DNA of 42,809 bases from Clostridia bacterium (GTDB taxonomy: Bacteria > Bacillota > Clostridia > Christensenellales > UBA1242), in contig JAFQUU010000009.1 of assembly GCA_017408305.1 (NCBI GenBank), positions 1 through 42,809 of the forward strand, in the 5' to 3' direction. Below are positions 3,526 through 31,753 of this stretch, in pieces. The notes beneath the pieces are model-generated. The model searched no databases. It saw nothing but the letters and a program-made list of their open reading frames with translations, and had not been told where the DNA came from. The translations under genes were made by a program, and so were the position numbers. The first letter of the stretch is position 1; every line of letters begins with the position of its first letter.

Positions 3526-5964
3526 GTGAAAACGAAAAAACAAACTCAAGCCCCACCAAAAAATTCAATCATTTTTAAAACCCTTAACACTGTGCTTCAT
3601 GAAAGTATGATTCCTTACACAGAACATGTTGTTATGGACAGGGCTCTGCCAAGGGTTGAAGATGGCTTAAAACCAGTGCAACGCAGAATTTTGTATTCTA
3701 TGTTTGAACTTGGCGTTATGCCAGACAAACCTTACAGAAAATCTGCCCGTATTGTTGGTGATTGCATGGGTAAATATCACCCACATGGCGACAGCAGTGT
3801 TTATGATGCAATGGTGCGTATGGCACAAAACTTTGTGCTGAAGGCCCCACTTGTTGATGGGCACGGCAACTTTGGCAGTATTGATGGCGATAGCGCAGCG
3901 GCAATGCGTTATACAGAAGCACGCCTTGCACCACTTGCACTTGAACTGCTTAAGGACCTTGAAAAAAATACGGTTGACTGGACTCTTAATTTTGATGACA
4001 CACTTAAAGAACCAGTAACGCTTCCAGGACGCTTTCCAAACCTTTTGGTTAATGGTGCAACTGGCATTGCAGTTGGCGTTGCAACAAACATCCCACCACA
4101 CAACTTGTCTGAGGTTATTGATGGTGTTTGTGCGTACATCAAAAACCCAAAAATTTCGCTTACAAACATGATGAAATACATTAAGGCTCCAGACTTTCCA
4201 ACCGGTGGCAATATTATTGTAGGTAATGGGCTTAGGGACGCATATGCAACAGGTAAGGGCAAAATTGTTATTCAGGCAAAAACACATATTGAAAAAACGG
4301 GAGACAAGTCTGCAATTGTAATTACTGAAATTCCTTATCAAGTGAATAAGGCACAACTTCTTCAAAAAATTGCAGAACTTAAAGAAAAAGAGAAAAATCT
4401 TTTGTCTTATATTGGCGAAATCACTGATGAGACAGACCGTAATGGCCTAAGGGCAGTGATTAAAATCAAAAAAGGTGGCAACGCAAAGGCAATCCTAAAT
4501 TACCTTCTTAAAAACACCAATCTTCAGCAAAACTACAACATCAATATGGTGGCAATTGCAGGTGGCAAACCAAAACTTATGGGGCTTCTTGACATTATTG
4601 CTTACTATTCAGATTATCAAATCCAAGTCATTGTAAGGCGTACAAAACACCTTCTTGATGAGGCAGAAGACAGGGCCCACATTGTTGAAGGGCTTCTTGT
4701 TGCAATCAAAAATATTGACGACATCATCAAGATTATTAAAACTTCTCCAACCACTGCAGTTGCTAAAGAACGCATAATGAAAAAGTTTAAACTTTCAGAC
4801 CGTCAGGCTCAGGCAATCCTTGATATGAGGATTAGTCGCCTTGTGAATATGGAAGTTAAAAAACTGCAAGAAGAGTTTAAAGAACTTAAAGAAAAAATCA
4901 AAAACTATAAGGCAATACTTGGCTCAAAAACCATGCAAGAAGACATTTTGGTTAAGGAACTTAAAGATGTAAGAAAAACTTTTGGAGGAACAAGAAGAAG
5001 CAGTCTTGAAGTTGAAAAAGAAGAAAAACAAACAGAGATTTTTGACCTTGTTGAGTGTGATGAATTCTTTGAAACAAACTATGTTGCCCTTTCTGCAGAC
5101 CATCGCCTAAAACGCATCAACGCACAAAAGGCTTCGCAAGTTAAGTATCAAAGTTATGCAGAGCCTTATGAAATTTCAACTGATGCAATCAAAATCAACG
5201 ATAACGAAGCGTTTTTTGTGTTTACAAACAAGGGTAATTGCATAAAACTTAAAGTTAAGGAACTGCCACTTGGACAGTGGAAAAGCAAAGGTCAACTTTT
5301 AAGTGAACTGAAGAAAAATATTCTTTACAGCGAGTATCCAGTAAAAATCTTGCCAATAAAAGAAGGCAAAAACCAAAGTATTATTATCTACACCAAGGCT
5401 GGCAATGCAAAAATCACACCTGTGTCAGACTTTATCAGTTCAAGAGTTATGTTTAGTGTGATAAATCTTAAAGATAAGGACACTGTGATTAATGCTGAAT
5501 ACAACGACGAAAACCAGTATATTATTGCTGTAACCAAATGGGCATATTCGCTTAAGTTTGACAAAAAAGAACTGCCTGTGCAAAAGCGTGCATCATCTGG
5601 CACAAAAATCTTTAAACTGCAAGAAGGTGATGAACTTGTGTTTGCAGGCCTTACTCAAAAAACAGGGAGTCTAACAATCCTGACCAACCAAGGCAACGGC
5701 AAAAAAGTGCCTATTGGCGACTACGAAATTACACCAAAATATCGTAGAGGCCTTAAAACAATCAACCTAAAAAGCACAAGGGAATATGTTATGTTTGCTA
5801 AGTTTTCTGCAGGCAACTTTGATATTGTGATGGAAACCAAAGAAAAACTTGTTGTTTTTGGCACAGAAAAACTTAAGTTTGAAACACGCATTGCAAAAGG
5901 CAAACAAATTGAAAAACTAAGATTTAAAAATGTGTATGCGGCAGTTGACAAGTCTACACTTTAA
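3526..5964 (+). CDS. Type IIA DNA topoisomerase subunit A (GyrA/ParC family; ParC-like)
   Basis: 812 aa, GTG start. HPHGD and [10 protein letters not shown] (catalytic Tyr region). I could not find a GyrA-box (QRRGGKG-like) in the C-terminal domain, which favours ParC. Confidence 0.9.
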
Positions 5965-6928: not shown

Positions 6929-7415
6929 GTTTATTATCCTTGGGGCAACTGCGATAATTTGTGGGTATATCGGGTTTGGAGTGTCTAGGTTTTACACAAA
7001 CCGAAGCAAGTTTTTTAAAAGCCTTGAACTACTTTTTGACAAACTAAAGTCTGAAATTAGTTTTTCTCAAAACAAACTTATTGAGATTGTTTCTAGTTAT
7101 GAGTGTCCAAGTACAGAAGCAAAAAAACTTATACAAAACTTTGTGGACTGCTTAAATTTTGACAAGCCCATATCAAAAGAAAATTTGTTTACTGGAATTA
7201 AGATTTTACATGAAGAGGAAGAATCTTTTTTAGAAATCTTTTTTAAAACCCTTGGCAAGTTTGATGCCTTAAATCAAACCAGCCAACTTGAAAATCAAAA
7301 AGTGGAACTTGGGGTGCTGTACAAAAAAGCAGATGAAGAAGCCAAAAGGTATGCCCCGTTATATTCAAAACTTGGCATAATTGTGGGGCTTGTGATTGCC
7401 CTTGTGTTTGCATAA
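6921..7415 (+). CDS. spoIIIAB: Stage III sporulation protein AB
   Basis: ATG 6921 follows GGAGGTTGAGGAGG and overlaps the spoIIIAA stop. 164 aa with an N-terminal TM helix. The track ORF from 6837 is an in-frame upstream extension. Confidence 0.8.
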   Translation: MIKFIILGATAIICGYIGFGVSRFYTNRSKFFKSLELLFDKLKSEISFSQNKLIEIVSSYECPSTEAKKLIQNFVDCLNFDKPISKENLFTGIKILHEEEESFLEIFFKTLGKFDALNQTSQLENQKVELGVLYKKADEEAKRYAPLYSKLGIIVGLVIALVFA

Positions 7416-7427
7416 AAAGGAGAATTT

Positions 7428-7622
7428 ATGAGCGTTGAAATTATATTTAAAATTGCTGGAATTGGCATTTTGACAGCAGTTGTTGGACAAGTTTTAAAGC
7501 AAAGTGGCAAAGACGAAATTGCAACCCTGACAACCCTTGCTGGCCTTGTGATTGTGCTTTTTATGGTTTTAGACCTTATCACAAATTTATTTTCTACAGT
7601 AAAAACTATGTTTGATTTTTAG
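7428..7622 (+). CDS. spoIIIAC: Stage III sporulation protein AC
   Basis: 64-aa two-TM protein in the conserved operon position. Confidence 0.8.
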   Translation: MSVEIIFKIAGIGILTAVVGQVLKQSGKDEIATLTTLAGLVIVLFMVLDLITNLFSTVKTMFDF

Positions 7623-7639: not shown

Positions 7640-8026
7640 TTGGACATCTTTAAAATTTTGGCAATAGCAATCTTAACCTGCATTGCAAGTTTGATTGTCA
7701 AACAGGTAAAGCCCGATTTTGCAAGTTTGGTAAGTCTTGCTGGGGGAGTGGTAATCTTACTTCTTCTTATCAATTACATCTCAAGCATTCTTGATGTTTT
7801 TAGGGGGATTATTGATAAAGCAAATTTGTCGCCTACACTTTTTTCTTCAATCTTAAAAATCATTGGTATAGGATATTTAACAGAGTTCACAGCAAACCTT
7901 TGCACTGACACAGGAAACTCTAGCCTTGCAAGCAAGGTGGGGCTTGCAGGCAAAATTATAATACTGTTTCTTGCCCTTCCAATCATTACAAATCTTCTTG
8001 AAGTTATTATGGGGATTTTGCCATGA
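7640..8026 (+). CDS. spoIIIAD: Stage III sporulation protein AD
   Basis: 128-aa polytopic membrane protein. TTG start preceded by a G8/GAG ribosome-binding tract. Operon position fits. Confidence 0.8.
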   Translation: MDIFKILAIAILTCIASLIVKQVKPDFASLVSLAGGVVILLLLINYISSILDVFRGIIDKANLSPTLFSSILKIIGIGYLTEFTANLCTDTGNSSLASKVGLAGKIIILFLALPIITNLLEVIMGILP

Positions 8027-9219
8027 TGATTAAAAAAATTTATGCACTTGTGGTGGCAATCCTGCTTGCAATTTTGCCACTTACGCTTTCAACGGGTGTA
8101 AATGTTTATGCCGACAACGGCAGTGGACAAACTGCAAGCGAAGAGTTTGATGAAACAATAAATGACCAACTTGAAAATCTGGACTTATCAGGCCTTAACA
8201 ACTTTTTTGAAAACTATTGTGATGATAAACTAGGCTTCTTTCAAGGGGGAAGCATCTTAGACAAAATTTCTGCAATCATAAATGGCGATTTTGGTGCAGA
8301 CAGCCAAACTGTTCTTGGGGGCATTGCAAACATATTTTTGGAAGAAATTGTCAGTTTTTTACCACTTATCTCCAGTATTATTGCAATCTCGGTTCTTGCA
8401 AGTTTGATTACAGAACTGAAGTCCACAAACAAGTCTATTGGCGACATTGTGCATTTTGTGTGTTTTGGGGTGATTGTTGTGCTGATTATGAGTGCAGTAA
8501 CCAAAATGATTGCACTTGCTTCATCGGCATTAACGCTACTAGATACGCAGATGGAAATTATGTTTCCAATACTTCTTACGCTTTTAACTGCCATCGGTGG
8601 CACTGTGTCTGTGGCAGTATATCAACCAGCAGTTGCAGTTTTGACATCAATTGTAACCAAAATTTTTGCTGGTGTGCTTCTTCCTCTTTTTGTATTTGCA
8701 GTTGTGCTTACAATCATTTCGCACATCTCACCAAACATAAAACTGGACAAAATAGCATCTTTTTTGTTCACACTTTTTAAGTGGATAATTGGTATTGTTT
8801 TTACTGTGTTTATGGCATTTTTGGCAATCAAGGGCATAACTGCAGGAAGCATAGACAGTGTGTCGTTTAAAACAGCAAGATATTCTCTTTCAACCTATGT
8901 GCCAATTGTTGGTGGGTACTTAAGCGAAGGTTTAAATCTTATTTTGGCAAGTTGCGTGCTTATCAAAAACGCAGTTGGCACTGCTGGGCTTTTCATTATG
9001 TTTTCAACTATACTTGTGCCACTTGTACAACTGGTTCTGTTCATGTTTGTCTTAAAGTTTTCTGGTGCAATTTTGCAACCACTATCTGACAGCAGGGTTT
9101 CAAACTTTTTAGGGGGGCTTTCAAAAGTGTTTTTAATGCCAATTGTTATGATACTTGCAGTTGCATTTATGTATGTGGTTTTTGTGGGGCTTATAATGTG
9201 CACAAGTGTTGGCATTTAA
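8023..9219 (+). CDS. spoIIIAE: Stage III sporulation protein AE
   Basis: 398 aa. Signal peptide, soluble N-domain, then a polytopic membrane domain. Operon position fits. Confidence 0.85.
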   Translation: MMIKKIYALVVAILLAILPLTLSTGVNVYADNGSGQTASEEFDETINDQLENLDLSGLNNFFENYCDDKLGFFQGGSILDKISAIINGDFGADSQTVLGGIANIFLEEIVSFLPLISSIIAISVLASLITELKSTNKSIGDIVHFVCFGVIVVLIMSAVTKMIALASSALTLLDTQMEIMFPILLTLLTAIGGTVSVAVYQPAVAVLTSIVTKIFAGVLLPLFVFAVVLTIISHISPNIKLDKIASFLFTLFKWIIGIVFTVFMAFLAIKGITAGSIDSVSFKTARYSLSTYVPIVGGYLSEGLNLILASCVLIKNAVGTAGLFIMFSTILVPLVQLVLFMFVLKFSGAILQPLSDSRVSNFLGGLSKVFLMPIVMILAVAFMYVVFVGLIMCTSVGI

Positions 9220-21440: not shown

Positions 21441-22748
21441 TTAATCGCAAAATTTCTTTGCAAAAATATAGTCAAAAATGCCACCTACAACAAAATTAAA
21501 TAAAAGAACGCAAGGATATAAAAATGTTGTTGCGAAGCCTAGGCAAGTTGCAAAAGAAAAACCATTATTAAACAAAAGATTTAAAGAAAATACGGCAGCA
21601 ACGCCCACAAAGAAGATTGCAATTGACACAAATAAATTACTATTTGAACTGTGAATTTTCCTAAATTTGTTTTTGGTAATTAGGTAATAAAGTGCAGGAA
21701 TAGCAAATATTATTGGCATTATTAAATACGCAATTGGATACTCAACTGAGCCATATATATTTGAAAAAATTAAGTAAATTGCAAGAGAACTGACAAAAAT
21801 TAGAGAAAATATTGTTAAGTATTTAGCGAAAAGATGTTTTGTCGATATTTTACCAAAACTTTCAGCAATTTCTTCGTTATCTTCCATATTTGCAGAAAAC
21901 TTTATTTGCATATCATCATATCTTGCTTGCAACTGATTTACAGACACAAACTCATCATCATCTGCATCGCCAAGTTTTATAAAGTTTGCTGATTTGCTCA
22001 TCTCATTATATAGGGCTTCAATTTTGTCAGCATCTGTTTCTTTTTTTCTGGATGAACGAATTTTTTGAACGACTTCACCAGTAGGCTCAATTTCCAAATT
22101 AAGACCACTAAGTTTTTTTACTTTAGGTATTTTTTCTTTTGGCATGGTTTCGGTAATAAATACGCCACCATCGGTGTGGGTTTCTTCTTGAAAACCTTCA
22201 TTTTCGTAATATTTTTCTTGGCTATTTTTTTCATTTTTAGAGTCTGGAATTATGTATACATCATGGGCATCCAAAAACACTCCGTCATCTTTTGTCGTTG
22301 TTTTTTCTTCCTTTTTAAGCGTATCTAAAAAAGTTTTACTGTCAAAGTTTTGCTGTTTTTTTTGTTCCTGATTTTTTTCAGTGAACAACTTGTCATTATT
22401 TTTTTGAAAATCGCCAAATTCGTAATATTTTTTTGGGGTATTTTGACTGTCAACAGAAAAGTTTGGAAGAACAGCATTTTCTTGTTCCTCTAGATATTTT
22501 TTGCCAGAATCAGTCAATTTATAATAATGACGCTTTCCACCATTTTTGCTGTCTTTCCAATATGACGAAATAAAACCTTGTTTTTCCATTCGTGAAAGCG
22601 TGCCATATAAAGTTGGTTGTTTTACAGAGACTTGGTTATCAGATTTTTTATGTAAATCATTTAAAAGTTCGGCACCATATTTGTCGCCGTCTAATAAACA
22701 AGATAATAATATTGTGGAGATTTGTCCACGAGGAATTAAATTATTCAT
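21441..22748 (-). CDS. PadR-family transcriptional regulator fused to a C-terminal multi-TM membrane domain
   Basis: 435 aa. N-terminal winged helix (KYGAELLNDL...QPTLYGTLSRMEKQGFISSYW...RHYYKLTDSGKKYL), a low-complexity linker, then about 4 TM helices. Confidence 0.75.
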   Translation of the reverse strand: MNNLIPRGQISTILLSCLLDGDKYGAELLNDLHKKSDNQVSVKQPTLYGTLSRMEKQGFISSYWKDSKNGGKRHYYKLTDSGKKYLEEQENAVLPNFSVDSQNTPKKYYEFGDFQKNNDKLFTEKNQEQKKQQNFDSKTFLDTLKKEEKTTTKDDGVFLDAHDVYIIPDSKNEKNSQEKYYENEGFQEETHTDGGVFITETMPKEKIPKVKKLSGLNLEIEPTGEVVQKIRSSRKKETDADKIEALYNEMSKSANFIKLGDADDDEFVSVNQLQARYDDMQIKFSANMEDNEEIAESFGKISTKHLFAKYLTIFSLIFVSSLAIYLIFSNIYGSVEYPIAYLIMPIIFAIPALYYLITKNKFRKIHSSNSNLFVSIAIFFVGVAAVFSLNLLFNNGFSFATCLGFATTFLYPCVLLFNFVVGGIFDYIFAKKFCD

Positions 22749-22954
22749 AAATGCCTCTCTGATAATAATTTTATCAAAACCAAATACTAAAAGTCAAACA
22801 ATGTAATTTAAGTAAACTGACAATTTTAAAAAAATTATGCCGAAATAGTAAGATATAAAGTTTGGATATCCACAAAATTTTATATAATGAAAAGGTTGAT
22901 TAATTTTTATGCAATTTGAAGAAGACCACTTCAATAATTTATAAAAAAACCTTT

Positions 22955-22982
22955 CTTTTCGCTAAAGTTGTCTTTAGCGAAA
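22955..22982. repeat. attL (dif-like core): CTTTTCGCTAAAGTTGTCTTTAGCGAAA
   Basis: Direct repeat of 28074-28101. Internally an 11-bp inverted repeat around TTGT. Confidence 0.85.
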
Positions 22983-22984
22983 TC

Positions 22985-23131
22985 TTATAGATGACACTGT
23001 TGTTCAACAAAATCTTCTAAAATGATTCTCACTAAATCACTAGTCTTTCTACGCTTTTCCAATGCAATCTTATCTAATTGCATTTTTAATTCTTCTGGTA
23101 GGCGTACAGCAAAAAGTATTTTTTTCTGCAA
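22985..23131 (-). CDS. Ribbon-helix-helix (Arc/CopG-like) DNA-binding protein, prophage-encoded
   Basis: TTG start at 23131, downstream of AAAGGAGGTGA. 48 aa: MQKKILFAVRLPEELKMQLDKIALEKRRKTSDLVRIILEDFVEQQCHL, a beta-strand/helix/helix RHH pattern. The track ATG at 23197 would read through the SD and promoter. Confidence 0.65.
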   Translation of the reverse strand: MQKKILFAVRLPEELKMQLDKIALEKRRKTSDLVRIILEDFVEQQCHL

Positions 23132-23175
23132 GGGGAACTCACCTCCTTTTAAGTTAAATATTGTATAACAATTTA

Positions 23176-23204
23176 ATAATACAAAAAATGTTAACAAATG
23201 TCAA
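23176..23204 (-). promoter_or_regulatory. Promoter of the RHH gene (TTGACA-17-TATTAT on the - strand)
   Basis: - strand TTGACA (23204-23199), 17-nt spacer, TATTAT (23181-23176). Palindrome ATTGTATAACAAT (23160-23172) sits at about +1 as a candidate operator. Confidence 0.55.
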
Positions 23205-23249
23205 ACAAAAAACAACAAGTTTTTAAACTTATTGTTTTATATTGAATAT

Positions 23250-24257
23250 TTAATCAATAGACCGAAGTAATCGACAAATTTGACTTTCCTTTGCTCTTCT
23301 TTTTAAAGCCAAATACTCTTCTTTCGACAAATCAGTCCTTTCTAATTGTAAAGCAAGGTTATACTCTGCTAACTCTTTTCTTGATTTTTTTATACTTTCA
23401 ATTACTGCATGATTTTCTAAGTCATATAAGTCATCATAATATTTAGGTGGTTTTATTTTTAGAACCTTTCTTTTACCATCACTTAAAATTATTTCATCGG
23501 TTTGGTATATTTCATGCTTATTCTCTTCAAAAAATTTTCTAGCAATACCAGGGGAACGAGAGCAATTCATGAACTCTGGAACTAAGCCATAAGTCAAATC
23601 AGATTCTTCATTTAACACGAAACCACTTGTTTTGCCTTTTTGTTTTTTCATAACATACCGAGCAGTGTAAGCAATAGAATTCCAAGTTACCTCACCAACT
23701 GAACAAAGACCTTTATTCCATACTTTCTCTATTATTTCAGAGCGATATATTTTATCGCCTGCCTTGTTTGTGAAAAAATATTTAAGGTCATTAAGTGGGC
23801 AATTAAATAATATCATATGAAAATGTGGTCTTGACTTTTTTGTGCCATATTCACCACAACCAAAAAATCTTATATTATCTATACCAAAATGATAACTCAT
23901 GTATCTTCTTAAATCTTTCATAAATTTTTGCATATCTTTTTTAACCAAAGTTGGTTTCTTCTGCACTTCACCAGTTTGAGCATTTAAAGATTTTACAAAA
24001 GTTAAATTATCATCAGAGTAAGTCAATGTAACAAAATAATTATTAGAATGTTCTTTACTTTCAATTAAACAGCGATTGGCCCACATTCTTGAATTTGCAA
24101 GTCGGCAACCAACGCATTTTCCACAAGGAATCTCAATAGGTTCAAATATTTTTGATAAATTATCATACTCAAATTGAGTTTTAGGAAAATAAATATTTTT
24201 CTTGCCATTGGAATTTAAACCTTTTGAAATTGCATGCAAGGGACTAAAACAACTCAT
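23250..24257 (-). CDS. Microviridae replication initiation protein VP4 (rolling-circle HUH endonuclease)
   Basis: 335 aa. CGKCVGCR Zn-like N-terminus, YFVTLTY (motif 1), HFHMILFN (HUH), YTARYVMKK (catalytic Tyr motif). GAGGT RBS. Confidence 0.9.
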   Translation of the reverse strand: MSCFSPLHAISKGLNSNGKKNIYFPKTQFEYDNLSKIFEPIEIPCGKCVGCRLANSRMWANRCLIESKEHSNNYFVTLTYSDDNLTFVKSLNAQTGEVQKKPTLVKKDMQKFMKDLRRYMSYHFGIDNIRFFGCGEYGTKKSRPHFHMILFNCPLNDLKYFFTNKAGDKIYRSEIIEKVWNKGLCSVGEVTWNSIAYTARYVMKKQKGKTSGFVLNEESDLTYGLVPEFMNCSRSPGIARKFFEENKHEIYQTDEIILSDGKRKVLKIKPPKYYDDLYDLENHAVIESIKKSRKELAEYNLALQLERTDLSKEEYLALKRRAKESQICRLLRSID

Positions 24258-24576
24258 CGTTGTACCTCAACTTTCAAAATGTTTTATTTAATACTGACAA
24301 CTAAAATTGTGTCAGTCAGCACCATTACATCAAGTAACTAATTGGTGCTGACTTTGGCACAACCAAAGTATTGTATTTTTTTAAAGTAAATTTAAAGCTA
24401 TTACTTTCGGCATCCGTTCTTTAATGCGTTACTCCAAGCGATAAAGTACTTACAAAAGGGATATCCCTCTTTGCCCTTCGGCAAATTCACCCTTAGCAAT
24501 TATGCCGAATTGTAACGCCACGTTATAGAATAAATGGGAATTTTGCTAATAAAAAAAGTAATAAATATTATTACTT
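24258..24576 (-). other. Structured non-coding region of the prophage (candidate origin/regulatory region)
   Basis: No ORF longer than about 10 codons. At least five perfect stem-loops: 24294-24315, 24315-24352 (10-bp stem), 24351-24369, 24457-24468, 24470-24485. An AT hairpin at 24554-24578 follows VP2. Confidence 0.6.
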
Positions 24577-24921
24577 TTAATATAATCTTCGCATAGTCCT
24601 AGATAAATGCCTTGTAGCAAGGGCTAGTGCAGTATTAACCAACATACTAAGACCATTAGAGCTCTTCCCTACACCACTTGCAGAAGAACCGGACGGCGTT
24701 GAAGCGGCGGCACCATTGCCACCACCAAACATATTAACAGGATTTAAACCTGCTTTTTTCATGTCTTCAACTGCTCTTTGATAAGCGCTATTAGACAATT
24801 CAGTTTGCCAATCCCTTTGTTTTTGAGCTTCTTCGGCATTAAAGGCAAACTCTGCTTTTTGAGCAGAAGTTGCACCAGACAAATCATTGAATATACTCCC
24901 AATATTATCTAAAAAACTCAT
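24577..24921 (-). CDS. Microviridae minor capsid / DNA pilot protein VP2-like (short form)
   Basis: ATG 24921 follows GGGAGG, 8 nt after the VP1 stop. 114 aa. AYQRAVEDMKKAGLNPV motif and a Gly/Ser-rich C-terminal half. The track start at 25053 overlaps VP1 and is rejected. Confidence 0.7.
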   Translation of the reverse strand: MSFLDNIGSIFNDLSGATSAQKAEFAFNAEEAQKQRDWQTELSNSAYQRAVEDMKKAGLNPVNMFGGGNGAAASTPSGSSASGVGKSSNGLSMLVNTALALATRHLSRTMRRLY

Positions 24922-24931
24922 AAAGGCCTCC

Positions 24932-26611
24932 CTATAATGATTTAAGACCAGGAACTGAATAAATAGGCATAACCCTAGTACAAATATTCTTAAAGTAGAA
25001 ATCAGCAATGAATTGGTCTTCCGTAGATGAAGATACTGATAAGGTCCTATCAAGATTGGCAGTTGTTTCCTCTAACCAAGTAGAGCCAAGAACTGGTTTA
25101 GAGGTATATTTGTCTGCATAATGCCAATTATCTAATGGCTGAGTATGAGTAGAACGAAATGCACCACTAACACGAGATGGTTTATACCTATACTCTGCCC
25201 ATGCTTCCTGATAGCCGAAAACTTCATCATCAACAGTTGTGCCTTGTGCATAGATTTCCTTATTAAATACAGGCTGTTCACCAATGTTAGCAAGAGCAGG
25301 CCAATAATAGTCAAACCTCTTTTTCCTTGACCAAAAACGCTCTATTCCTTGTTGATATGTGTGTTCGGTTCTAACACAAACAAGACCAAGTAATATGCCA
25401 TGCTCAGTAAACGACTTGGTAAAGCTAGAAGATTTATCGCCTGTCAAAGAATAAGCGGCAGTATTACCTTGAGGAGATACATCATCAGTTGAGGATGTTT
25501 GTAAAACTTGAGAAATATTAATAGGAATCCTCTTACCACCAAGATACTCTGGTCTTTGCTGGCGAGCATCTGGAGAAACAACGCCAAAATGAGATTTAAT
25601 AATTTCTGCATAACGAGTACCACCACGAGCATCTCGTTCATACAACTTCTGCACTGCAAAGGCTTGTCTTAATTGGTTTATTGTTGATGCAGTTGCAGTT
25701 GATAAGTCAGCAATACCAGTTGCTTTTAGACCAGTATTTGTACCATCAAATCCAATAGTTTTGCCAGCAGTCCAAGCTGTATTGCTACCAGCTGTACTGC
25801 CAATACCAGTATAATTTGAAGTTGAAAGCAAATAAGGATTATTAGAATCAGAACTTGCAGAAACAAAAACACCTTTATCTGTACCATTAGTCCATATAGG
25901 ATTCTTGCCATCAGAAGAAAGAGAAATAGACAAAGGCGCACTAGAACCAAGTGGAATATTTACATCTGGACCTTTTTGTGGGGCTGGAAGACAACTTGTA
26001 AAATAATCATGATATTTGTTAACAGGGGCAATCCCACCTCCAGTACAGCCAGACATCAAAAAGTTGGCATAATTAAAATTGCTTAAAGTACTATTGCTAT
26101 CTGAAAGACTAAAAGATGCAGAAGATTGCAAATTTTGGTCTCTAAACCACTCATTCCATGTCAAAACGTAAGCTCTAAAAGGTAATGCCGAAACAGAAAG
26201 ATTTTTAACCCCAGTAGGAATACCCATATAATCAGCAATAGAACCTTTAAACCAACCAGTAGGTGCAATTGCTTGAGGAACCTCATACTCTGTTGGACTT
26301 TCCCAATCTGGATTACTGGATTCACCATTAAAATACTTCCAACTACTCCAAACCAACCTGTTCGGTATAAAGAAATAATAGAGGTCAAGATAACAGTTAT
26401 CCATAACAGGGTGAACAGGCGTGGTCATTCTAACCACACAAGAAGTTTCCATTTTAAAAGTATCACCAGGTAAAACTTCATCAACAAAAATTGGAATAAG
26501 TTTGCCAGCGTTAAAAGTTGTCTTATGTTGACTACTTCTATCAAAGGTTGAACGAGGCATTGACAAAAAAGTTGGATTTACAGCAAAACGACTTTCTACA
26601 TTTCTATTCAT
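24932..26611 (-). CDS. Microviridae major capsid protein VP1 (F-protein family)
   Basis: 559 aa. The N-terminus PRSTFDRSSQHKTTFNAGKLIPIFVDEVLPGDTF...MDNCYLDLYYFFIPNRLVW closely resembles chlamydiaphage-type VP1. AGGAGG RBS. Confidence 0.95.
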   Translation of the reverse strand: MNRNVESRFAVNPTFLSMPRSTFDRSSQHKTTFNAGKLIPIFVDEVLPGDTFKMETSCVVRMTTPVHPVMDNCYLDLYYFFIPNRLVWSSWKYFNGESSNPDWESPTEYEVPQAIAPTGWFKGSIADYMGIPTGVKNLSVSALPFRAYVLTWNEWFRDQNLQSSASFSLSDSNSTLSNFNYANFLMSGCTGGGIAPVNKYHDYFTSCLPAPQKGPDVNIPLGSSAPLSISLSSDGKNPIWTNGTDKGVFVSASSDSNNPYLLSTSNYTGIGSTAGSNTAWTAGKTIGFDGTNTGLKATGIADLSTATASTINQLRQAFAVQKLYERDARGGTRYAEIIKSHFGVVSPDARQQRPEYLGGKRIPINISQVLQTSSTDDVSPQGNTAAYSLTGDKSSSFTKSFTEHGILLGLVCVRTEHTYQQGIERFWSRKKRFDYYWPALANIGEQPVFNKEIYAQGTTVDDEVFGYQEAWAEYRYKPSRVSGAFRSTHTQPLDNWHYADKYTSKPVLGSTWLEETTANLDRTLSVSSSTEDQFIADFYFKNICTRVMPIYSVPGLKSL

Positions 26612-27162
26612 TAAATATTACCTCCTAAATTAACACCTTGGCTTTGAACAGGCGTGCTTTGACTTTCCATAGATACATTAATAGGTTCAACATTTTGAAC
26701 TTGAGGTTGAACAATAGGCTCTACCTTATTAATTTGTGGTTGTAAATGCTTATTTATCTTTTCTTCAAAAGTACCATTTGAAATACTTGCAACAAACTCT
26801 GACATAGAGTGGTTAAACTCAGAACGGACTGCAACAGGCATTTCTTTAAATAAGGTTTCAGCATTTAATATGATTTCTTGAGCATCATTTAAAGACTTTG
26901 GCATATTAGAAATATCTGCAAAAAATCCTTGAGATTGATTTAATGCTAAAGTATCTCCATTAACATGTCGTTCTAAAATGTTATAAACCAAACATTCTTC
27001 CTTATGAGCTTGAATTTCTTTGTAAATATTTCTTTTACCAGTTTGTTTAACTTCTTTTTTCCCAGTTTCTTTATCTATAACAAGAGAGTAAACTGGCACT
27101 ATATCTTCACCAGAGGGACTAGCTTCTACTGGTGGTTTTTTTGACCTTGAATAAAAATCCAC
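26611..27162 (-). CDS. Microviridae internal scaffolding protein VP3-like
   Basis: 183 aa, GTG start overlapping the upstream stop. IYKEIQAHKEEC...GDTLAL...AQEIILNAETLFKEMPVAVRSEFNHSMSEFV matches the VP3 pattern. Its stop overlaps the VP1 ATG (TAATG). Confidence 0.75.
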   Translation of the reverse strand: MDFYSRSKKPPVEASPSGEDIVPVYSLVIDKETGKKEVKQTGKRNIYKEIQAHKEECLVYNILERHVNGDTLALNQSQGFFADISNMPKSLNDAQEIILNAETLFKEMPVAVRSEFNHSMSEFVASISNGTFEEKINKHLQPQINKVEPIVQPQVQNVEPINVSMESQSTPVQSQGVNLGGNI

Positions 27163-27416
27163 TACTCACCTGCCTTTGTAATAACATCATTTGCTTTAAT
27201 TAAAAACTTAACTTCACTTGTCAATATTCCAGTATCATCATCAAAAGTACCTAAGCACCAAAGTTCTTTATCCTCTGGGTTTGTATTTATTGCATTTTTT
27301 TGCACTTCATTAGCACCATTTGTAAATTCACGAATGGCAACACCTTCATTATGTGTAAAGAATGGATTCATAAATCCTATTTTAGTATCTTTTATTGCGA
27401 AAACTTTTAGCTGCAT
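27162..27416 (-). CDS. Microviridae small non-structural protein (VP5/ORF5-like)
   Basis: 84 aa. KVFAIKDTKIGFMNPFF...GVAIREF...NPEDKELWCLGTFDDDTG resembles, from memory, the conserved gokushovirus ORF5 family. Confidence 0.6.
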   Translation of the reverse strand: MQLKVFAIKDTKIGFMNPFFTHNEGVAIREFTNGANEVQKNAINTNPEDKELWCLGTFDDDTGILTSEVKFLIKANDVITKAGE

Positions 27417-27591
27417 ATTTTTTATTCTCCTTTATTAATTTTTTTTGTGATTTTAATTCATTTTTAAATTCTTTTATTAACAATTTGTATTCTTCAACTG
27501 TTAATAATACAAGAGGGTAAAAATAAATTAGAGGTTTATTGTTTTTATATGTATATCTAACAATAATTTCTTTATCAATTTTTGCTCTCAT
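27382..27591 (-). CDS. Hypothetical Lys-rich prophage protein
   Basis: 69 aa. Its ATG overlaps the stop of the upstream 31-aa ORF (ATGA) and its 3' end overlaps the VP5-like start by 35 nt. No motif recognised. Confidence 0.35.
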   Translation of the reverse strand: MRAKIDKEIIVRYTYKNNKPLIYFYPLVLLTVEEYKLLIKEFKNELKSQKKLIKENKKYAAKSFRNKRY

Positions 27592-27683
27592 AAGCGAGTA
27601 CCACCACGCATTGAAGTTGGCACTATATTTATCAACTTAGATTTAACTGCTGTATGTCTAAAGATTTTTTTATCTTTTTTCAT
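27588..27683 (-). CDS. Small basic DNA-binding peptide (gokushovirus ORF8 / phiX J-like)
   Basis: Below the ORF-track size cut-off. MKKDKKIFRHTAVKSKLINIVPTSMRGGTRL (31 aa, highly basic). The C-terminal MRGGxRL resembles the chlamydiaphage ORF8 end as I remember it. Confidence 0.5.
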   Translation of the reverse strand: MKKDKKIFRHTAVKSKLINIVPTSMRGGTRL

Positions 27684-27684
27684 G

Positions 27685-28017
27685 TTAGTTGGACGACGTT
27701 TCAATGCACACCTCCTTTTTTTGTGGAGTTGATAATATTTTTTCTATTTCTGCAATAAAATCTTCTTCTGCAAAATCAATATCATTTTGTAAACACAACA
27801 TTTGAATTTGATTCAAAACAAGACTACGCTTCACTTCACCACTACCTCTGCCAATAAGTTTTTCAACTTGGTTAATAATATTAGGCAGTTTTTGGACAAT
27901 TTGAGCAAGCTTAAGTGTTTTCGTTTTTTTATTGCTTTTAAAGAAATTAACAACTGCAATAATTGATGTTACAATTGTAATACAACAGGTAACAATAATC
28001 TCTGGGTCATCAAACAT
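27685..28017 (-). CDS. Single-TM membrane protein, phage holin-like (LL-H-family resemblance)
   Basis: ATG 28017 lies 5 nt after AAGGAG. The track GTG at 28023 overlaps the SD. 110 aa. N-terminal TM (IIVTCCITIVTSIIAVVNFF), then GSGEVKRSLVLNQIQMLC...DIDFAEEDFIAEIEKIL. Confidence 0.5.
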   Translation of the reverse strand: MFDDPEIIVTCCITIVTSIIAVVNFFKSNKKTKTLKLAQIVQKLPNIINQVEKLIGRGSGEVKRSLVLNQIQMLCLQNDIDFAEEDFIAEIEKILSTPQKKEVCIETSSN

Positions 28018-28073
28018 ATTCACTCCTTCTTTAATTTAAAATTGTTATACAAGACAAAAAAACCAAAAAAAAA

Positions 28074-28101
28074 CTTTTCGCTTTAGTTGTCTTTAGCGAA
28101 A
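28074..28101. repeat. attR (dif-like core): CTTTTCGCTTTAGTTGTCTTTAGCGAAA
   Basis: Direct repeat of attL with two substitutions (AA to TT) in the left arm. The right-arm palindrome extends to 28103 (…GCGAAAAG). Confidence 0.85.
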
Positions 28102-28260
28102 AGTTAAAAGTCTCAAAATATTTTGAAAATTTGTGCCACCCTTTTCTACAAAAAAATTAAAAAAACTTAAAAATTGCATAATGATTGTTGTTATAAAACT
28201 TTAAAAGTACAAAAAATTTGCTTTTGCTGTGGAATTTGCTTGCAAAATATTGTTTAAATA

Positions 28261-28286
28261 AAAAAAATTGGCTCGTAAAGCCAATT
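28261..28286 (-). terminator. Terminator of the 317-aa gene
   Basis: AATTGGCT (28266-28273) / AGCCAATT (28279-28286). The A7 run on + gives a T run on the - strand. Confidence 0.7.
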
Positions 28287-28357
28287 AAAAATATTACGAT
28301 TTTGACCAGTTTTTACAATTTTTTAGAACAGCAACCCCGTTAAAATTTGGGAATATT

Positions 28358-29311
28358 TTATACACCCTGCACTAATTTATTAAAGAATTTGTTGATGTCT
28401 TGATATTGGACTTGGCACATATCATCTTCAAAAATCTTTTTGTTTGTAGAAGATATTGAAAACAATTTTCTTATAGGAGTGTTTATTAAATAATTTGTTG
28501 CAAAAACAAAATTATCATAAATATCTTCACTTTCAAACGCTGAGTATGGCAAATTTGCAATCAAACTTTCCATAAAAAGCCCTTTTGAAGAGTCCTGCAT
28601 CAAATGTTCATAAAGACCTTTGAAACAAATAACAAGTTGCAGAAGCTTTTCTGAAAAAGATTGTTTTAAAAGGTGGTTTATGTTTTGAAAGTAATCAACC
28701 AGTTTGAATTCTTTTAGTTTTTTCTTGTTTGGTGCGTAAAACAAAAATGTTGAGTCTTCTTTTTTGATGACAGGATAAATTCTTATATTATACGGCACAT
28801 TTTTACCTTGCACGCCAATTACGCCTCTTGCAGAAAAAGCAACATCATCTTGGGTGATTTCTTTGGCGATTGCATGCACAAGGTCTTTTGTAAAATAAGC
28901 CAAATTATAGTCTTCTTTGTGTGTTTCATAAAGGTTTACAGGTGCTTCTTCTGCACTTTGTTTTTTGCGTTTTTTCTTCTTTTTTTTCTTTTTACGGTTT
29001 GCCCAAGCGTATTTTAACCTTTCTTTAAAGATTACCCATTTGTTTTTAAAAAGTTTATGGGTGTTAAGTTCTATTTGAGGGTTATTAACTAAAACAAAGA
29101 GGTCTATCGTTGAAGAAGGAAGCACGGCACCAGAATAAAATGACCCAAATGGCAAAATTTCAAAGTCTTTTGATACATAAGGATTTACATCTGAAATGGC
29201 TGAAAGTGCATTTTGAACAATTGTTGTTGCAAAACCTAGGCCCTGCAGTGCCACTTCATCATTTAGGCTTTCTGCAAAATTTTTTATGGTTGATTTATCA
29301 ATTTTTATCAA
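28358..29311 (-). CDS. Hypothetical protein with a degenerate Pol-beta/CD-NTase-like nucleotidyltransferase fold and a poly-Lys insert
   Basis: 317 aa. PFGSFYSGAVLPSSTIDLFVLV resembles the hG[GS]-x(9-13)-DxD NTase motif, but the second acidic residue is Phe. Insert NRKKKKKKKKRKKQ. Confidence 0.45.
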   Translation of the reverse strand: MIKIDKSTIKNFAESLNDEVALQGLGFATTIVQNALSAISDVNPYVSKDFEILPFGSFYSGAVLPSSTIDLFVLVNNPQIELNTHKLFKNKWVIFKERLKYAWANRKKKKKKKKRKKQSAEEAPVNLYETHKEDYNLAYFTKDLVHAIAKEITQDDVAFSARGVIGVQGKNVPYNIRIYPVIKKEDSTFLFYAPNKKKLKEFKLVDYFQNINHLLKQSFSEKLLQLVICFKGLYEHLMQDSSKGLFMESLIANLPYSAFESEDIYDNFVFATNYLINTPIRKLFSISSTNKKIFEDDMCQVQYQDINKFFNKLVQGV

Positions 29312-29331
29312 CTACTTCTTCACTCCCCTTC

Positions 29332-30612
29332 TTATTTTTTTGGAGCCAAAATTGTTTGTCCACCCATAAATGGCCTTAAAACTTCCGGAATTGTAACTGT
29401 GCCATCGGCATTTTGGAATTGTTCTACAATTGCTGGCATAAGGCGTGTTGTTGCAAGCCCAGATGCATTAAGGATATGGCAAAACTTGTTTTTGCCTGTT
29501 TTTGAGTCTTTATAGCGAATGTTGCCCCTTCTTGCTTGATAGTCCCTAGCGTTGCTGGCAGAAGAAACTTCCTTATAGATATTCATGCTTGGAAGCCAAA
29601 CTTCTATATCATAAGTGCGTGCCATACTGTGAGAACAGTCTGCAGCCGCAAGTTTGCTGGTTTGAAAATGAAGGCCAAGTTTTTCCATAAGGCTTTCTGC
29701 TTTGCCAACAAGTTCCATAAACGCTTCGTCAGATTTTTCTGGTGTTGTGTATTGAAACATTTCAACCTTATTGAATTGATATCCCCTAATCATACCTCTT
29801 TCCTCTGTGCGATAACTGCCAACCTCGCAACGATAGCAAGGAGTGTAAGCAAAGTATTTTTTAGGAAGGTCTTCTTCTTTCAAAATTTCATTTCTGTGAT
29901 AGTTTACAAGTGCTGTTTCTGCAGTTGGCAAAATAAACTTTCTTGGTTCAACGCCTTCAAGCCAGAAAACATCTTCCTTAAATTTTGGGAACTGCCCTGC
30001 AACCAAACCACTTTCGTAATTTAAGATGTGTGGTGGCAAAATAAATTCATAACCATCTTTAAGGTGTTCTGAAATAAAGAAATTTAAAAGTGCCCATTCA
30101 AGCCTTGCACCATCGCCCTTGTAAATCCAAGTGCCACGCCCTGAAATTTTGCTTGCCCTTTCATAGTCAATAAGCCCAAGGCTTTCGCAAAGTTCAACAT
30201 GGTCTTTAGGTTCAAAATCAAAATGTGGTTTTTCGCCAAAAACATTAACAGGCTTATTGTTTTCTTTGCCACCAGGAAGCAGGTCTGCATCAGGAATGTT
30301 TGGAAGTGCTGACATAAAATCAAAAATCTTATCACTAAGCACCTTAACTTGTTCATCAAGGGCTTCAATTTCTTTGTTTATGCCCTTCACTTCTTGAAAG
30401 ATATGTTCTGCACTTTGGCCGGCTTTTTTAAGTGCTGGAACCTCAGATGACAAGGTGTTTCTTTTGGCCTTAAGTTCATCAGCCTTTGCCATAAGGCGAT
30501 TTTTTGTTTCATAGTCTTTAAGAAGTTCGTCAAAGTTTGTGTCCCAATTTTTCTTAAGAAGGGCCTGCCTTACTTTTTCTGGGTTTTCTTTAATTAAATT
30601 AATATCAATCAT
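29332..30612 (-). CDS. serS: Seryl-tRNA synthetase
   Basis: 426 aa from ATG 30612 (MIDINLIKENPEKV...). Coiled-coil tRNA arm and class II motifs (RGYQFNKVEMF, GLATTRL). The track start at 30714 is an upstream extension. Confidence 0.95.
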   Translation of the reverse strand: MIDINLIKENPEKVRQALLKKNWDTNFDELLKDYETKNRLMAKADELKAKRNTLSSEVPALKKAGQSAEHIFQEVKGINKEIEALDEQVKVLSDKIFDFMSALPNIPDADLLPGGKENNKPVNVFGEKPHFDFEPKDHVELCESLGLIDYERASKISGRGTWIYKGDGARLEWALLNFFISEHLKDGYEFILPPHILNYESGLVAGQFPKFKEDVFWLEGVEPRKFILPTAETALVNYHRNEILKEEDLPKKYFAYTPCYRCEVGSYRTEERGMIRGYQFNKVEMFQYTTPEKSDEAFMELVGKAESLMEKLGLHFQTSKLAAADCSHSMARTYDIEVWLPSMNIYKEVSSASNARDYQARRGNIRYKDSKTGKNKFCHILNASGLATTRLMPAIVEQFQNADGTVTIPEVLRPFMGGQTILAPKK

Positions 30613-30712: not shown

Positions 30713-31753
30713 ATGAGTCAGTACTTTATTGAAAGAGATAAAAAAAATTTGAATGAAATTAAAAATTATCAAAAAAAACTGCCTTCTTTTTGCCAAAATT
30801 ATTTTTTGGATAAAGAAACCACTTCTTCCACTTCTACCCGTCTTGCAATTGCTATAGACCTAAGCGTTTTTTTTGAGTTTATTAAAAAATACAAATTTTC
30901 TGGCACTAAAGTTGAAAATATCTCCTACCACCAAATGTCTAAAATTGAAAGTGATGATATTTCAAGTTTCTTAAGTTATATTTCTTACTACGAGCATAAT
31001 GGAAAAAACTATAAAAACTCCAATAACGGAAAGTCCAGAAAACTTGCAAGCATTAGAAGCCTATTTAAATGGCTTTATAAGAAAAATTACATACAAAGTG
31101 ATGTCGCTGCCAAAATTGATACACCAAAAAAGCACGAAAAGCCTATTGTTAGGCTTGAGGCAGATGAAGTTGCAAAGATGCTTAACACCACAGAAGATGG
31201 AAGTTTTGAAATGTCAAAACGCCAAGTAAAATACCTGCAAAACACTTCTAAACGAGACACTGCCATCTTAACGCTTTTTTTGTCAACAGGAATTCGCGTA
31301 AGCGAATGTGTTGGGCTTGACCTTGATGACTTTGATTTTGACAACAATGCATTTAAAATCACAAGAAAAGGTGGCAATCAAACAATCTTGTATTTTACTG
31401 AAGAAACCAAAGACGCCCTGCTTGATTGGCTTGAGGTTAGAGCAAATTCTATGATTCCAGAAGAAGAAACTGCGATGTTCACTTCACTACAAAAAAGACG
31501 GCTTACTGTTCGGGCTGTTGAATACATCGTAAAAAAATATGCAAAGTTTGTAAACCCACTGAAAAAAATATCCCCACATAAACTGAGAAGCACTTTTGGC
31601 ACCAACCTATATCGTGGGACAGGCGATATTTATATTGTTGCAGATGTTTTGGGACATAAAGATATTAATGTAACAAAACGCCACTATGCAGCCATTGCAG
31701 AAGACTCTAAAAAAACTGCTGCCCAAATTATAAAACTTAGAGATAAAAAATAG
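30713..31753 (+). CDS. Xer-family tyrosine recombinase, XerS-like (long N-terminal domain)
   Basis: 346 aa. Catalytic blocks TGIRVSECVGLDLDDF (Arg), ITRKGGNQT (Lys hairpin), HKLRSTFGTNLY (HxxR), LGHKDINVTKRHY (His, Tyr). Length and the RKGG block resemble streptococcal XerS rather than the ~300-aa XerC/D. Confidence 0.85.
   Translation: MSQYFIERDKKNLNEIKNYQKKLPSFCQNYFLDKETTSSTSTRLAIAIDLSVFFEFIKKYKFSGTKVENISYHQMSKIESDDISSFLSYISYYEHNGKNYKNSNNGKSRKLASIRSLFKWLYKKNYIQSDVAAKIDTPKKHEKPIVRLEADEVAKMLNTTEDGSFEMSKRQVKYLQNTSKRDTAILTLFLSTGIRVSECVGLDLDDFDFDNNAFKITRKGGNQTILYFTEETKDALLDWLEVRANSMIPEEETAMFTSLQKRRLTVRAVEYIVKKYAKFVNPLKKISPHKLRSTFGTNLYRGTGDIYIVADVLGHKDINVTKRHYAAIAEDSKKTAAQIIKLRDKK

Follow-up and report, generated by a model that had tools for sequence, protein, structure and literature searches.

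A candidate ribbon-helix-helix repressor gene and its operator-like boxes in a dif-integrated microvirus prophage from Clostridia

Known small repressors and the microvirus locus

CopG (RepA) of the rolling-circle plasmid pMV158 and ORF56 of the Sulfolobus plasmid pRN1 are small ribbon-helix-helix (RHH) proteins that are autoregulated from their own promoter via a short pseudo-symmetric element. Both are encoded at the head of a transcription unit on a small replicon with its own initiator, and they damp expression and copy number, CopG by acting on the copG-repB unit of pMV158 and ORF56 by acting on pRN1. These stand-alone RHH proteins of 45-56 aa provide the best fold and sequence matches to a 48-aa protein encoded in contig JAFQUU010000009.1 of a Clostridia bacterium (42,809 nt; this whole stretch is called the window). 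Its gene, the RHH gene, lies at the edge of a 5.1-kb element, a complete gokushovirus-like microvirus prophage that occupies the dif site of its host (the window prophage, WIN in lists of genomes). The analysis described here indicates, with moderate confidence, that the gene encodes a dimeric RHH transcriptional repressor of this temperate microvirus and that a family of short boxes serves as its operators. Compared to CopG and ORF56, the setting is different: the protein belongs to an encapsidated single-stranded DNA (ssDNA) phage in which the transcription unit ends with the Rep gene, and there are extra boxes at the attachment site and the lysis gene. Moreover, no antisense RNA partner is evident here, and the identity of CopG and ORF56 to the window protein is only ~26%.

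Arc and Mnt of Salmonella phage P22 are autoregulated RHH repressors of ~50-80 aa whose symmetric operators overlap promoters, and Arc was matched to the window protein by both Foldseek and PHROG. However, Arc and Mnt control the antirepressor (immI) beside a separate c2 repressor, whereas neither an ant-like gene nor a second repressor is found among the nine genes of the window phage. Functional analogues in lifestyle are the repressors of Xer-exploiting filamentous phages, among them RstR of CTX-phi, a small helix-turn-helix (HTH) repressor of an ssDNA filamentous phage that integrates at dif via host Xer, and of which tandem prophage arrays occur. Tandem prophages were encountered here too (in L092; L and P numbers are labels of the genomes and proteins of relatives), but RstR is an HTH protein of an inovirus, and fold, gene layout and virion type differ. 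In its proposed regulatory logic, the locus resembles that of F55 of the Sulfolobus spindle-shaped virus SSV1, a repressor of 55 aa that the virus encodes and expresses from a separate transcript. F55 binds an 11-nt site, present in several copies on its own and on early promoters, and is chiefly responsible for maintaining the carrier or lysogenic state (PMC9608457). CopG-like proteins of SSV viruses are weak tblastn neighbours of the window protein. In contrast, SSV1 is an archaeal double-stranded DNA virus with its own integrase, the release of F55 is coupled to RadA, and direct homology between F55 and the window protein is not detectable beyond the fold class.

Microviruses rank with the most abundant phages of the gut and the environment and were long regarded as purely lytic and devoid of regulators. 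Temperate microviruses use the host Xer system and, to our knowledge, the factor behind their quiescence or immunity has been identified by nobody. Prophages of this family that integrate at dif have been described in Bacteroidetes (PMC3091885) and in enterobacteria, including the enterogokushovirus EC6098 (PMC7062461), and the first note of such prophages in Firmicutes, not tied to dif, dates from 2022 (PMC9239249). Superinfection immunity was observed for EC6098, with the responsible factor not being assigned to a gene (PMC7062461). The Bacteroidetes proviruses and EC6098 lack an integrase, carry a dif-like phage attachment site (attP) and use host Xer at dif, and the same layout is read from the sequence of the window prophage. 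What differs here is the spore-forming Clostridia host, the palindromic xer-linked dif and the presence of a candidate dedicated regulator, RHH in this phage and HTH in sister phages. The word 'repressor' is absent from the text of PMC3091885, PMC7062461 and PMC9239249, the lone match to 'regulator' being araC in the references of PMC7062461, and no relevant paper emerged from full-text searches that paired microvirus with ribbon-helix-helix, CopG or transcriptional regulator. An earlier reading of the window, made from the letters alone (the sequence-only reading), had stated that canonical gokushoviruses have no repressor, and in the literature searched no regulator is reported for microviruses. 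The RHH gene is a candidate for the first dedicated regulator described for the microvirus family. Two known kinds of element, an RHH autorepressor and a Xer-exploiting prophage, would here be combined in a family of phages for which regulators were not known. In this locus and its relatives, the candidate is concrete enough to be tested, as it consists of a very small RHH repressor whose boxes are defined, with an HTH alternative in sister phages. The locus and its relatives also extend dif-type lysogeny to spore-forming Clostridia with an xer-linked palindromic dif.

The RHH protein, its promoter and its boxes

By its predicted fold, and with profile matches that pass the cutoff in an orthologue but stay just below it in the window protein, the 48-aa product appears to belong to the RHH proteins, in agreement with the sequence-only reading. 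Pfam RHH_1 matches it with 19.1 bits (cutoff 20.5; E = 1.2e-3), with Arc and RHH_5 as secondary matches, and the positional orthologue in L003, a Christensenella prophage, passes the RHH_1 cutoff (29.0 bits, E = 9e-7). Precomputed RHH_1 matches exist for P0007 and P0009 as well. The PHROG matches of the window protein are CopG-like and Arc-like repressor families (~1e-4), its top NCBIfam match is 'ORF56 family plasmid copy control protein', and a sequence search of the PDB gave ORF56 of pRN1 and EndoAI, both weak. In the AlphaFold2 single-sequence model (pLDDT 85), residues 1-12 are extended and helices are predicted at 13-25 and 30-45, which matches the strand-helix-helix fold of ~45 residues. 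Nearly all of the top ~50 Foldseek matches in the PDB are RHH proteins (template modelling score, TM, 0.7-0.86; the E-values are weak owing to the short length of the protein), led by CopG (2cpg, 1ea4), the DNA-binding domain of CopA-SO, ORF56, Arc, AmrZ and ParD. Domain scans of the 48-aa protein give RHH as its sole domain, with no S24 peptidase as in a lambda-CI-type inducible repressor.

All phage genes are on the minus strand of the window. The 48-aa open reading frame (ORF) with its TTG start is present at the prophage edge as had been reported, and a 33-nt direct repeat begins right after its stop codon. P0001, a 96%-identical homologue, is annotated by PGAP as 48 aa. A 70-aa reading from the TTG at 23197, taken from a mechanical ORF list, was rejected, as this start codon lies inside the promoter and the homologues have 46-56 aa. 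The ribosome-binding site is strong, and its GGAGG(TG) element recurs 5' of the RHH gene in L001, L033, L037, L091 and L107. The strong promoter that had been assigned to the gene, TTGACA-17-TATTAT (P_RHH), stands up well: matching 11 of the 12 consensus positions, it ranks first among the 27 promoter-like sites of 22400-29500, and in this range it is the sole site of at least 10/12 on the phage coding strand. The total of such sites shows no excess over chance (27 found vs 29 expected). The -35 TTGACA is kept in all family members inspected, and P_RHH is the only strong coding-strand promoter in WIN and in L034.

Directly 3' of VP4 and upstream of P_RHH, a terminator-like hairpin of 13 bp is followed by a T-run (RNA fold -12.9 kcal/mol, z = -5.2; identical in L001), and it was counted as insulation of the RHH gene. 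The second palindrome of the sequence-only reading, AAGTTTTTAAACTT at 23217-23230, does exist, but it is the core of this longer hairpin and its supposed operator role was given up: because the hairpin and T-run directly follow the VP4 stop codon, the element looks like a VP4 terminator rather than an operator.

The boxes have a core that is shared across lineages, TGT, two or three A/T and ACA, with TTGTA-N-TACAA as the full form. In the window prophage P_RHH carries one box in its -35/-10 spacer and one at +1, and own-promoter boxes are found in all lineages. The box at +1 (O1b in Table 1) begins 4 nt past the -10 and is the palindrome noticed earlier; it is real, although as a palindrome it is imperfect, being a 5+3+5 inverted repeat. 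It is a member of a family of conserved boxes that recurs 5' of gene 1, and this strengthens the suggested repression and autoregulation. A spacer box at the matching position is found in L033, L092, L093 and L096 (GTAATACA), in L091 (TGTATAGCA) and in L037 and L095, and in six aligned RHH promoters the sole invariant block 3' of the -10 is GT..(A/T)ATACA. Usually, there is one box in the -35/-10 spacer, one just after the -10 and one to three in the stretch from attP to gene 1. The 42.8 kb contain two exact copies of the 12-mer TTGTATAACAAT, one in the RHH promoter (23161-23172) and one, inverted, before gene 1 (28041-28052). With at most one mismatch the 12-mer has four matches vs 0.94 expected, a number reached by none of 100 shuffles; the fourth, a near-match in serS, was taken as chance. 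A further box inside gene 1 (O3), of uncertain operator status, is kept in L001, L091, L107 and L108.

With the strict motif, 17 of the 18 boxes in nine genomes lie in the 2,970 nt of predefined regulatory windows, and one lies in the remaining 43.6 kb. Taking one genome for each of five lineages, 10 boxes were observed vs 0.34 expected from dinucleotide shuffles of the AT-rich regulatory windows themselves, and 10 was reached in none of 2000 shuffles. Relatives without the RHH gene contain six boxes in 243 kb, never clustered. Three genomes were held out, as they were found after the motif had been fixed: L105 has a single box that abuts attP, L107 has five of its six boxes within regulatory windows, and L106 has a variant box (TGTTTACA / TGTAAACA) in both regulatory regions. 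The consensus count per genome is weakly significant, the position-aware tests being the informative ones. An exact longest-common-substring test between the regulatory regions is significant in WIN alone, where P_RHH and the gene 1 region have a 14-mer in common (empirical p = 0.003). It lacks significance in the remaining lineages, in which the boxes differ by one or two bases. With the relaxed motif, four of the six matches in the window prophage lie in the two regulatory regions, and the VP2-VP4 spacer and the surroundings of the VP4 start are free of boxes; the direct control of VP4 that had been put forward therefore finds no footing. Control of VP4 via the spacer at 24258-24576 was rejected on the same ground, this being a boxless and strongly folding ssDNA element. 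The boxes were also considered as the VP4 nicking origin, which was rejected since they occur in both orientations, lie inside the promoter spacer and are absent from RHH-less relatives with a similar VP4. A role as -10 elements of a gene 1 promoter was rejected too, as no usable -35 is seen at 16-18 nt on direct reading.

The order VP4, RHH, attP, gene 1 is found in every context examined (L001-L003, L033, L034, L037, L091-L096 and L105-L108), and the ORF, with its ribosome-binding site, promoter and position, is retained in members whose VP4 has diverged to as little as 42% identity. A homologue search with the single sequence found one cluster only, so that profile searches were needed. A profile of six members found 11 clusters only, all of 46-56 aa, among 5.8 billion proteins, on contigs of 0.5-14 kb except for the Christensenella prophage contig. 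An exhaustive profile search gave 995 representatives at E <= 1e-3, of which 30 at E <= 1e-10, and the nearest representatives that were looked up are on 5.2-5.5-kb contigs. The family is rare, as illustrated by the GenBank phage collection, in which more than 2,170 records match VP4 and one, Dipodfec virus UOA04_Rod_907, has the RHH family, annotated as 'hypothetical protein'; in general, its public labels are 'hypothetical protein' or 'DNA-binding protein'. It was not detected in the distant virome relatives L005-L032, which were first recovered with the window VP4 (VP4 34-39% identity). In an Oscillospiraceae prophage, L041, a 47-aa RHH-like ORF with sub-threshold HicB and RHH_1 matches is located just downstream of VP4 on the opposite strand (7380-7523, minus).

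In the sister prophages L036, L038 and L039 (VP4 41-46% identity), which have dif-like flanking repeats, the RHH gene is missing. The same slot, just inside the attachment site, is occupied there by an XRE HTH_3 gene of 89-99 aa (3e-17), divergent from gene 1. That two unrelated small DNA-binding proteins are found in one slot by attP argues that this slot holds a regulatory or lysogeny module. L039 has two copies of the HTH gene 5.2 kb apart (2519-2818 and 7692-7967), suggesting tandem prophages. Head-to-tail prophage copies are found in L092 (2078-9616), beside a PadR gene, and the free genome L106 has a duplicated attP at about 5490-5570. Another Clostridia prophage, L042, carries a gene for a 342-aa XerC/D-like recombinase directly after VP4 (7693-8721, plus), which may be a host or a phage gene.

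Repression as the proposed function, and its rivals

From the computed fold, promoter, box distribution and conservation, dif site, Xer gene and gene order, we infer DNA binding, co-transcription, repression, lysogeny and immunity in the following way. The RHH protein would bind the boxes on P_RHH, in the spacer and at +1, resulting in negative autoregulation, as well as the boxes past the attachment site, before and possibly inside gene 1, by which the lysis-structural-replication block would be kept off. Gene 1 is the probable first target of this repression. The phage has no integrase and would integrate via the host XerS-like recombinase at the palindromic dif, with attP located after the RHH gene and before gene 1. 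Once the genome is circular, the genes downstream of the RHH gene are probably transcribed from P_RHH as well; such read-through is likely because P_RHH is the only strong promoter and the gap to gene 1 is short, with 70-135 nt from the RHH stop codon to gene 1 in the free genomes inspected, and has no good promoter and no convincing terminator, the hairpin of attP being weak or absent. Integration at attP would then sever the lytic genes from P_RHH, the RHH gene remaining expressed at the prophage end. The protein could in this way keep the resident prophage silent and repress P_RHH of incoming phages, conferring immunity, so that its role would be the maintenance of lysogeny. A bolder and rather unlikely extension is that this 5-kb ssDNA phage has a minimal lysogeny switch of two parts, made up of the RHH protein with its boxes and attP. 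Xer-mediated integration would disconnect the only strong promoter from the lysis, structural and replication genes, the RHH protein would silence residual or incoming expression and, bound to boxes that abut or flank the phage arm of the Xer site, it would also guard the prophage against excision driven by Xer/FtsK. If true, a single protein of 48 residues would link the regulation of transcription with that of a recombination reaction of the host.

Several points weigh against repression as the function of the RHH gene. The window protein falls just short of the Pfam RHH_1 cutoff. No induction route is visible, as the protein has neither a peptidase nor a sensor domain and there is no antirepressor. 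The boxes on P_RHH are ~26 nt apart, i.e., 2.5 helical turns, while the classic arrangement is on the same face, and the conservation of O3 may reflect coding constraint. The box consensus was derived post hoc, partly from the test data, and several of the genomes are closely related; the lineage-collapsed test and the held-out genomes lessen both concerns. A T9 run after attP in WIN and L001 could terminate P_RHH transcripts, in which case gene 1 would need some other, weak promoter. Lastly, sister prophages at like dif sites persist without the RHH gene, so lysogeny in the clade does not depend on the family.

The resemblance to CopG and ORF56 leaves room for a dosage controller, i.e., an autoregulated first gene of a genome-length operon ending in the VP4 Rep gene, which would damp expression and the copy number of the replicative form with no specific role in lysogeny. 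CopG and ORF56 are the top structural matches, the best NCBIfam model is named after copy control, and the size class and the boxes on the own promoter are alike; besides, an HUH rolling-circle Rep is encoded on the same replicon, of which P_RHH is the sole strong promoter. Such a function is nevertheless judged unlikely, since seven genes lie between the RHH gene and VP4 in transcription order, the vicinity of VP4 is boxless and the additional boxes cluster at attP and gene 1 instead. Moreover, the RHH gene is always accompanied by a dif-type attP, it is replaced in the sister phages by an XRE HTH gene in the classic divergent repressor layout, and the family was not detected in the distant virome relatives mentioned above. 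Dosage control is compatible with repression, and so is a modulation of Xer recombination; these readings are not mutually exclusive.

The latter would imply that the protein binds by the phage arm of attP or attL and blocks or directs host Xer, either stabilising the prophage against excision at cell division or aiding integration, with transcription being secondary. The geometry of the site suggests as much in a number of genomes: the RHH stop codon abuts attP in WIN, L001, L003, L033, L034 and the L092 group, boxes abut the phage arm or overlap its end in L093, L095, L096 and L105, and attP has boxes to either side in L037, L091 and L107. In WIN and L003, however, the closest box is 23-37 nt from the dif core, and the boxes on P_RHH have no link to recombination. 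Sister prophages at a like site do without the RHH gene, and we know of no RHH-type Xer cofactor; this reading is judged quite improbable. A very remote explanation would be that the ORF encodes an antitoxin or a partition adaptor, or that it arose by chance. There are weak profile matches to RelB-like, ParD and HicB antitoxins and to partition proteins, but the 5.1-kb phage genome has no toxin or ParA gene and the 48-aa protein no C-terminal, toxin-binding extension. A chance ORF is ruled out by the conservation of ORF, ribosome-binding site, promoter and position described above.

Prophage genome, attachment site and host neighbourhood

The nine phage genes are gene 1, a VP8-like gene, orf66, VP5, VP3, VP1, VP2, VP4 and RHH (Table 1). 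The holin-like gene 1 is unusual in a microvirus and fits a Gram-positive host. The non-coding spacer between VP2 and VP4 folds as ssDNA with -49.9 kcal/mol (z = -7.4), far beyond shuffles, is without a match in Rfam, and may serve as an origin for the complementary strand or for replication; in L003, L033 and L034, a spacer of ~300 nt is placed between VP4 and the RHH gene instead. The window prophage is collinear with L001, a 5,093-nt contig (88-93% nucleotide identity), which represents the circular form because its VP1 gene is split across the contig ends. In this circle, attP and then gene 1 follow the RHH gene within 86 nt. The description of the RHH gene as the last gene before attL is thus correct for the integrated form, where its neighbours are VP4 and the attachment site, but not for the circular genome, where it is directly upstream of gene 1.

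Table 1. Positions of the features discussed (window coordinates, unless a relative is named).
Feature	Position	Strand	Details
RHH gene	22985-23131	minus	48 codons; TTG start at 23131, TAA stop 22985-22987
Ribosome-binding site of the RHH gene, AAAGGAGGTGA	23139-23149	minus	read directly; GGAGG-to-TTG distance 10 nt
P_RHH	23176-23204	minus	-35 TTGACA 23204-23199; 17-nt spacer; -10 TATTAT 23181-23176
Box O1a, TGTTAACA	23189-23196		in -35/-10 spacer of P_RHH
Box O1b, ATTGTATAACAAT	23160-23172 (core 23162-23170)		about +1 of P_RHH; minus-strand reading ATTGTTATACAAT
Box O2, TTGTATAACAAT	28041-28052		between attachment site and ribosome-binding site of gene 1, ~25 nt 5' of ATG
Box O3, TTGTATTACAAT	27974-27985		perfect TTGTA-T-TACAA in codons ~11-14 of gene 1; operator status uncertain
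Terminator-like hairpin and T-run	23207-23243	minus	ACAAtAAGTTtaaaAACTTgTTGT then T6, directly 3' of VP4
VP4 stop codon	23252-23250	minus	
VP4, Rep	23250-24257	minus	HUH rolling-circle
VP2-VP4 spacer	about 24258-24579	minus	structured, non-coding, 322 nt
VP2, pilot (short)	24577-24921	minus	
VP1, capsid	24932-26611	minus	
VP3, scaffold	26611-27162	minus	
Gene 1	27685-28017	minus	110-aa membrane holin-like protein; Phage_holin_6_1 25.6 bits (cutoff 24.9); PHROG holin 8e-8
Attachment-site copy by the RHH gene	22955-22987		28-bp dif-like core 22956-22983; begins right after the RHH stop codon
Attachment-site copy by gene 1	28074-28106		core 28075-28102
Host Xer-like tyrosine recombinase	30713-31753	plus	346 aa; Pfam Phage_integrase 2e-31; 2.6 kb from prophage
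XRE HTH_3 gene, L036	2493-2762	minus	
XRE HTH_3 gene, L038	1942-2214	minus	
XRE HTH_3 gene, L039	7692-7967	minus	

The 33-nt direct repeat bounds the prophage with a spacing of 5119. Its core is a perfect 11-6-11 arrangement, TTTTCGCTAAA-GACAAC-TTTAGCGAAAA, of which the window contains just two copies. As described for mobile elements exploiting Xer (IMEX), the prophage has no recombinase gene of its own among the nine genes of its 5.1 kb and is flanked by dif-like repeats at the host dif. The window bears the signature of a chromosome replication terminus, which it spans: the GC skew is positive to ~21.5 kb and negative from ~22.5 kb, and genes converge at 21.2-21.4 kb. The exact 24-bp core is found in one copy each in the genomes of eight other Clostridia species, without nearby phage genes. 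Homologues of the host recombinase (48-50% identical) are located 0.2-0.6 kb from the core in six of these eight species, and in four of the genomes a PadR-like gene is present on the other side of the core, as in the window. A single-copy core without phage genes and with a linked xer homologue points to an xer-linked palindromic dif as the attachment site, the eight loci being empty sites. The top NCBIfam model of the host recombinase is XerS (187 bits, under the XerS cutoff of 267), so it is not a XerS equivalog. Judging from these sequence comparisons, the locus looks like an xer-linked single-recombinase dif system in uncultured Clostridia, not filed as XerS, and the recombinase is presumed to be the integrase used by the phage.

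In the host flank, 28192-28217 resembles 23164-23189, a stretch of the RHH promoter and operators (26 nt, 85% identity), and a similar resemblance is seen in L003, an independent prophage (2196-2237 vs 7293-7334, 42 nt at 74%). This likeness could be chance or a relic; an older-prophage relic in the flank was rejected, as the global alignment is poor and no third copy of the attachment site is present. The gene adjoining dif (21441-22748, minus) encodes a PadR-family regulator of 435 aa with a long, membrane-like C-terminal extension, and a PadR-like gene is also found in L092.

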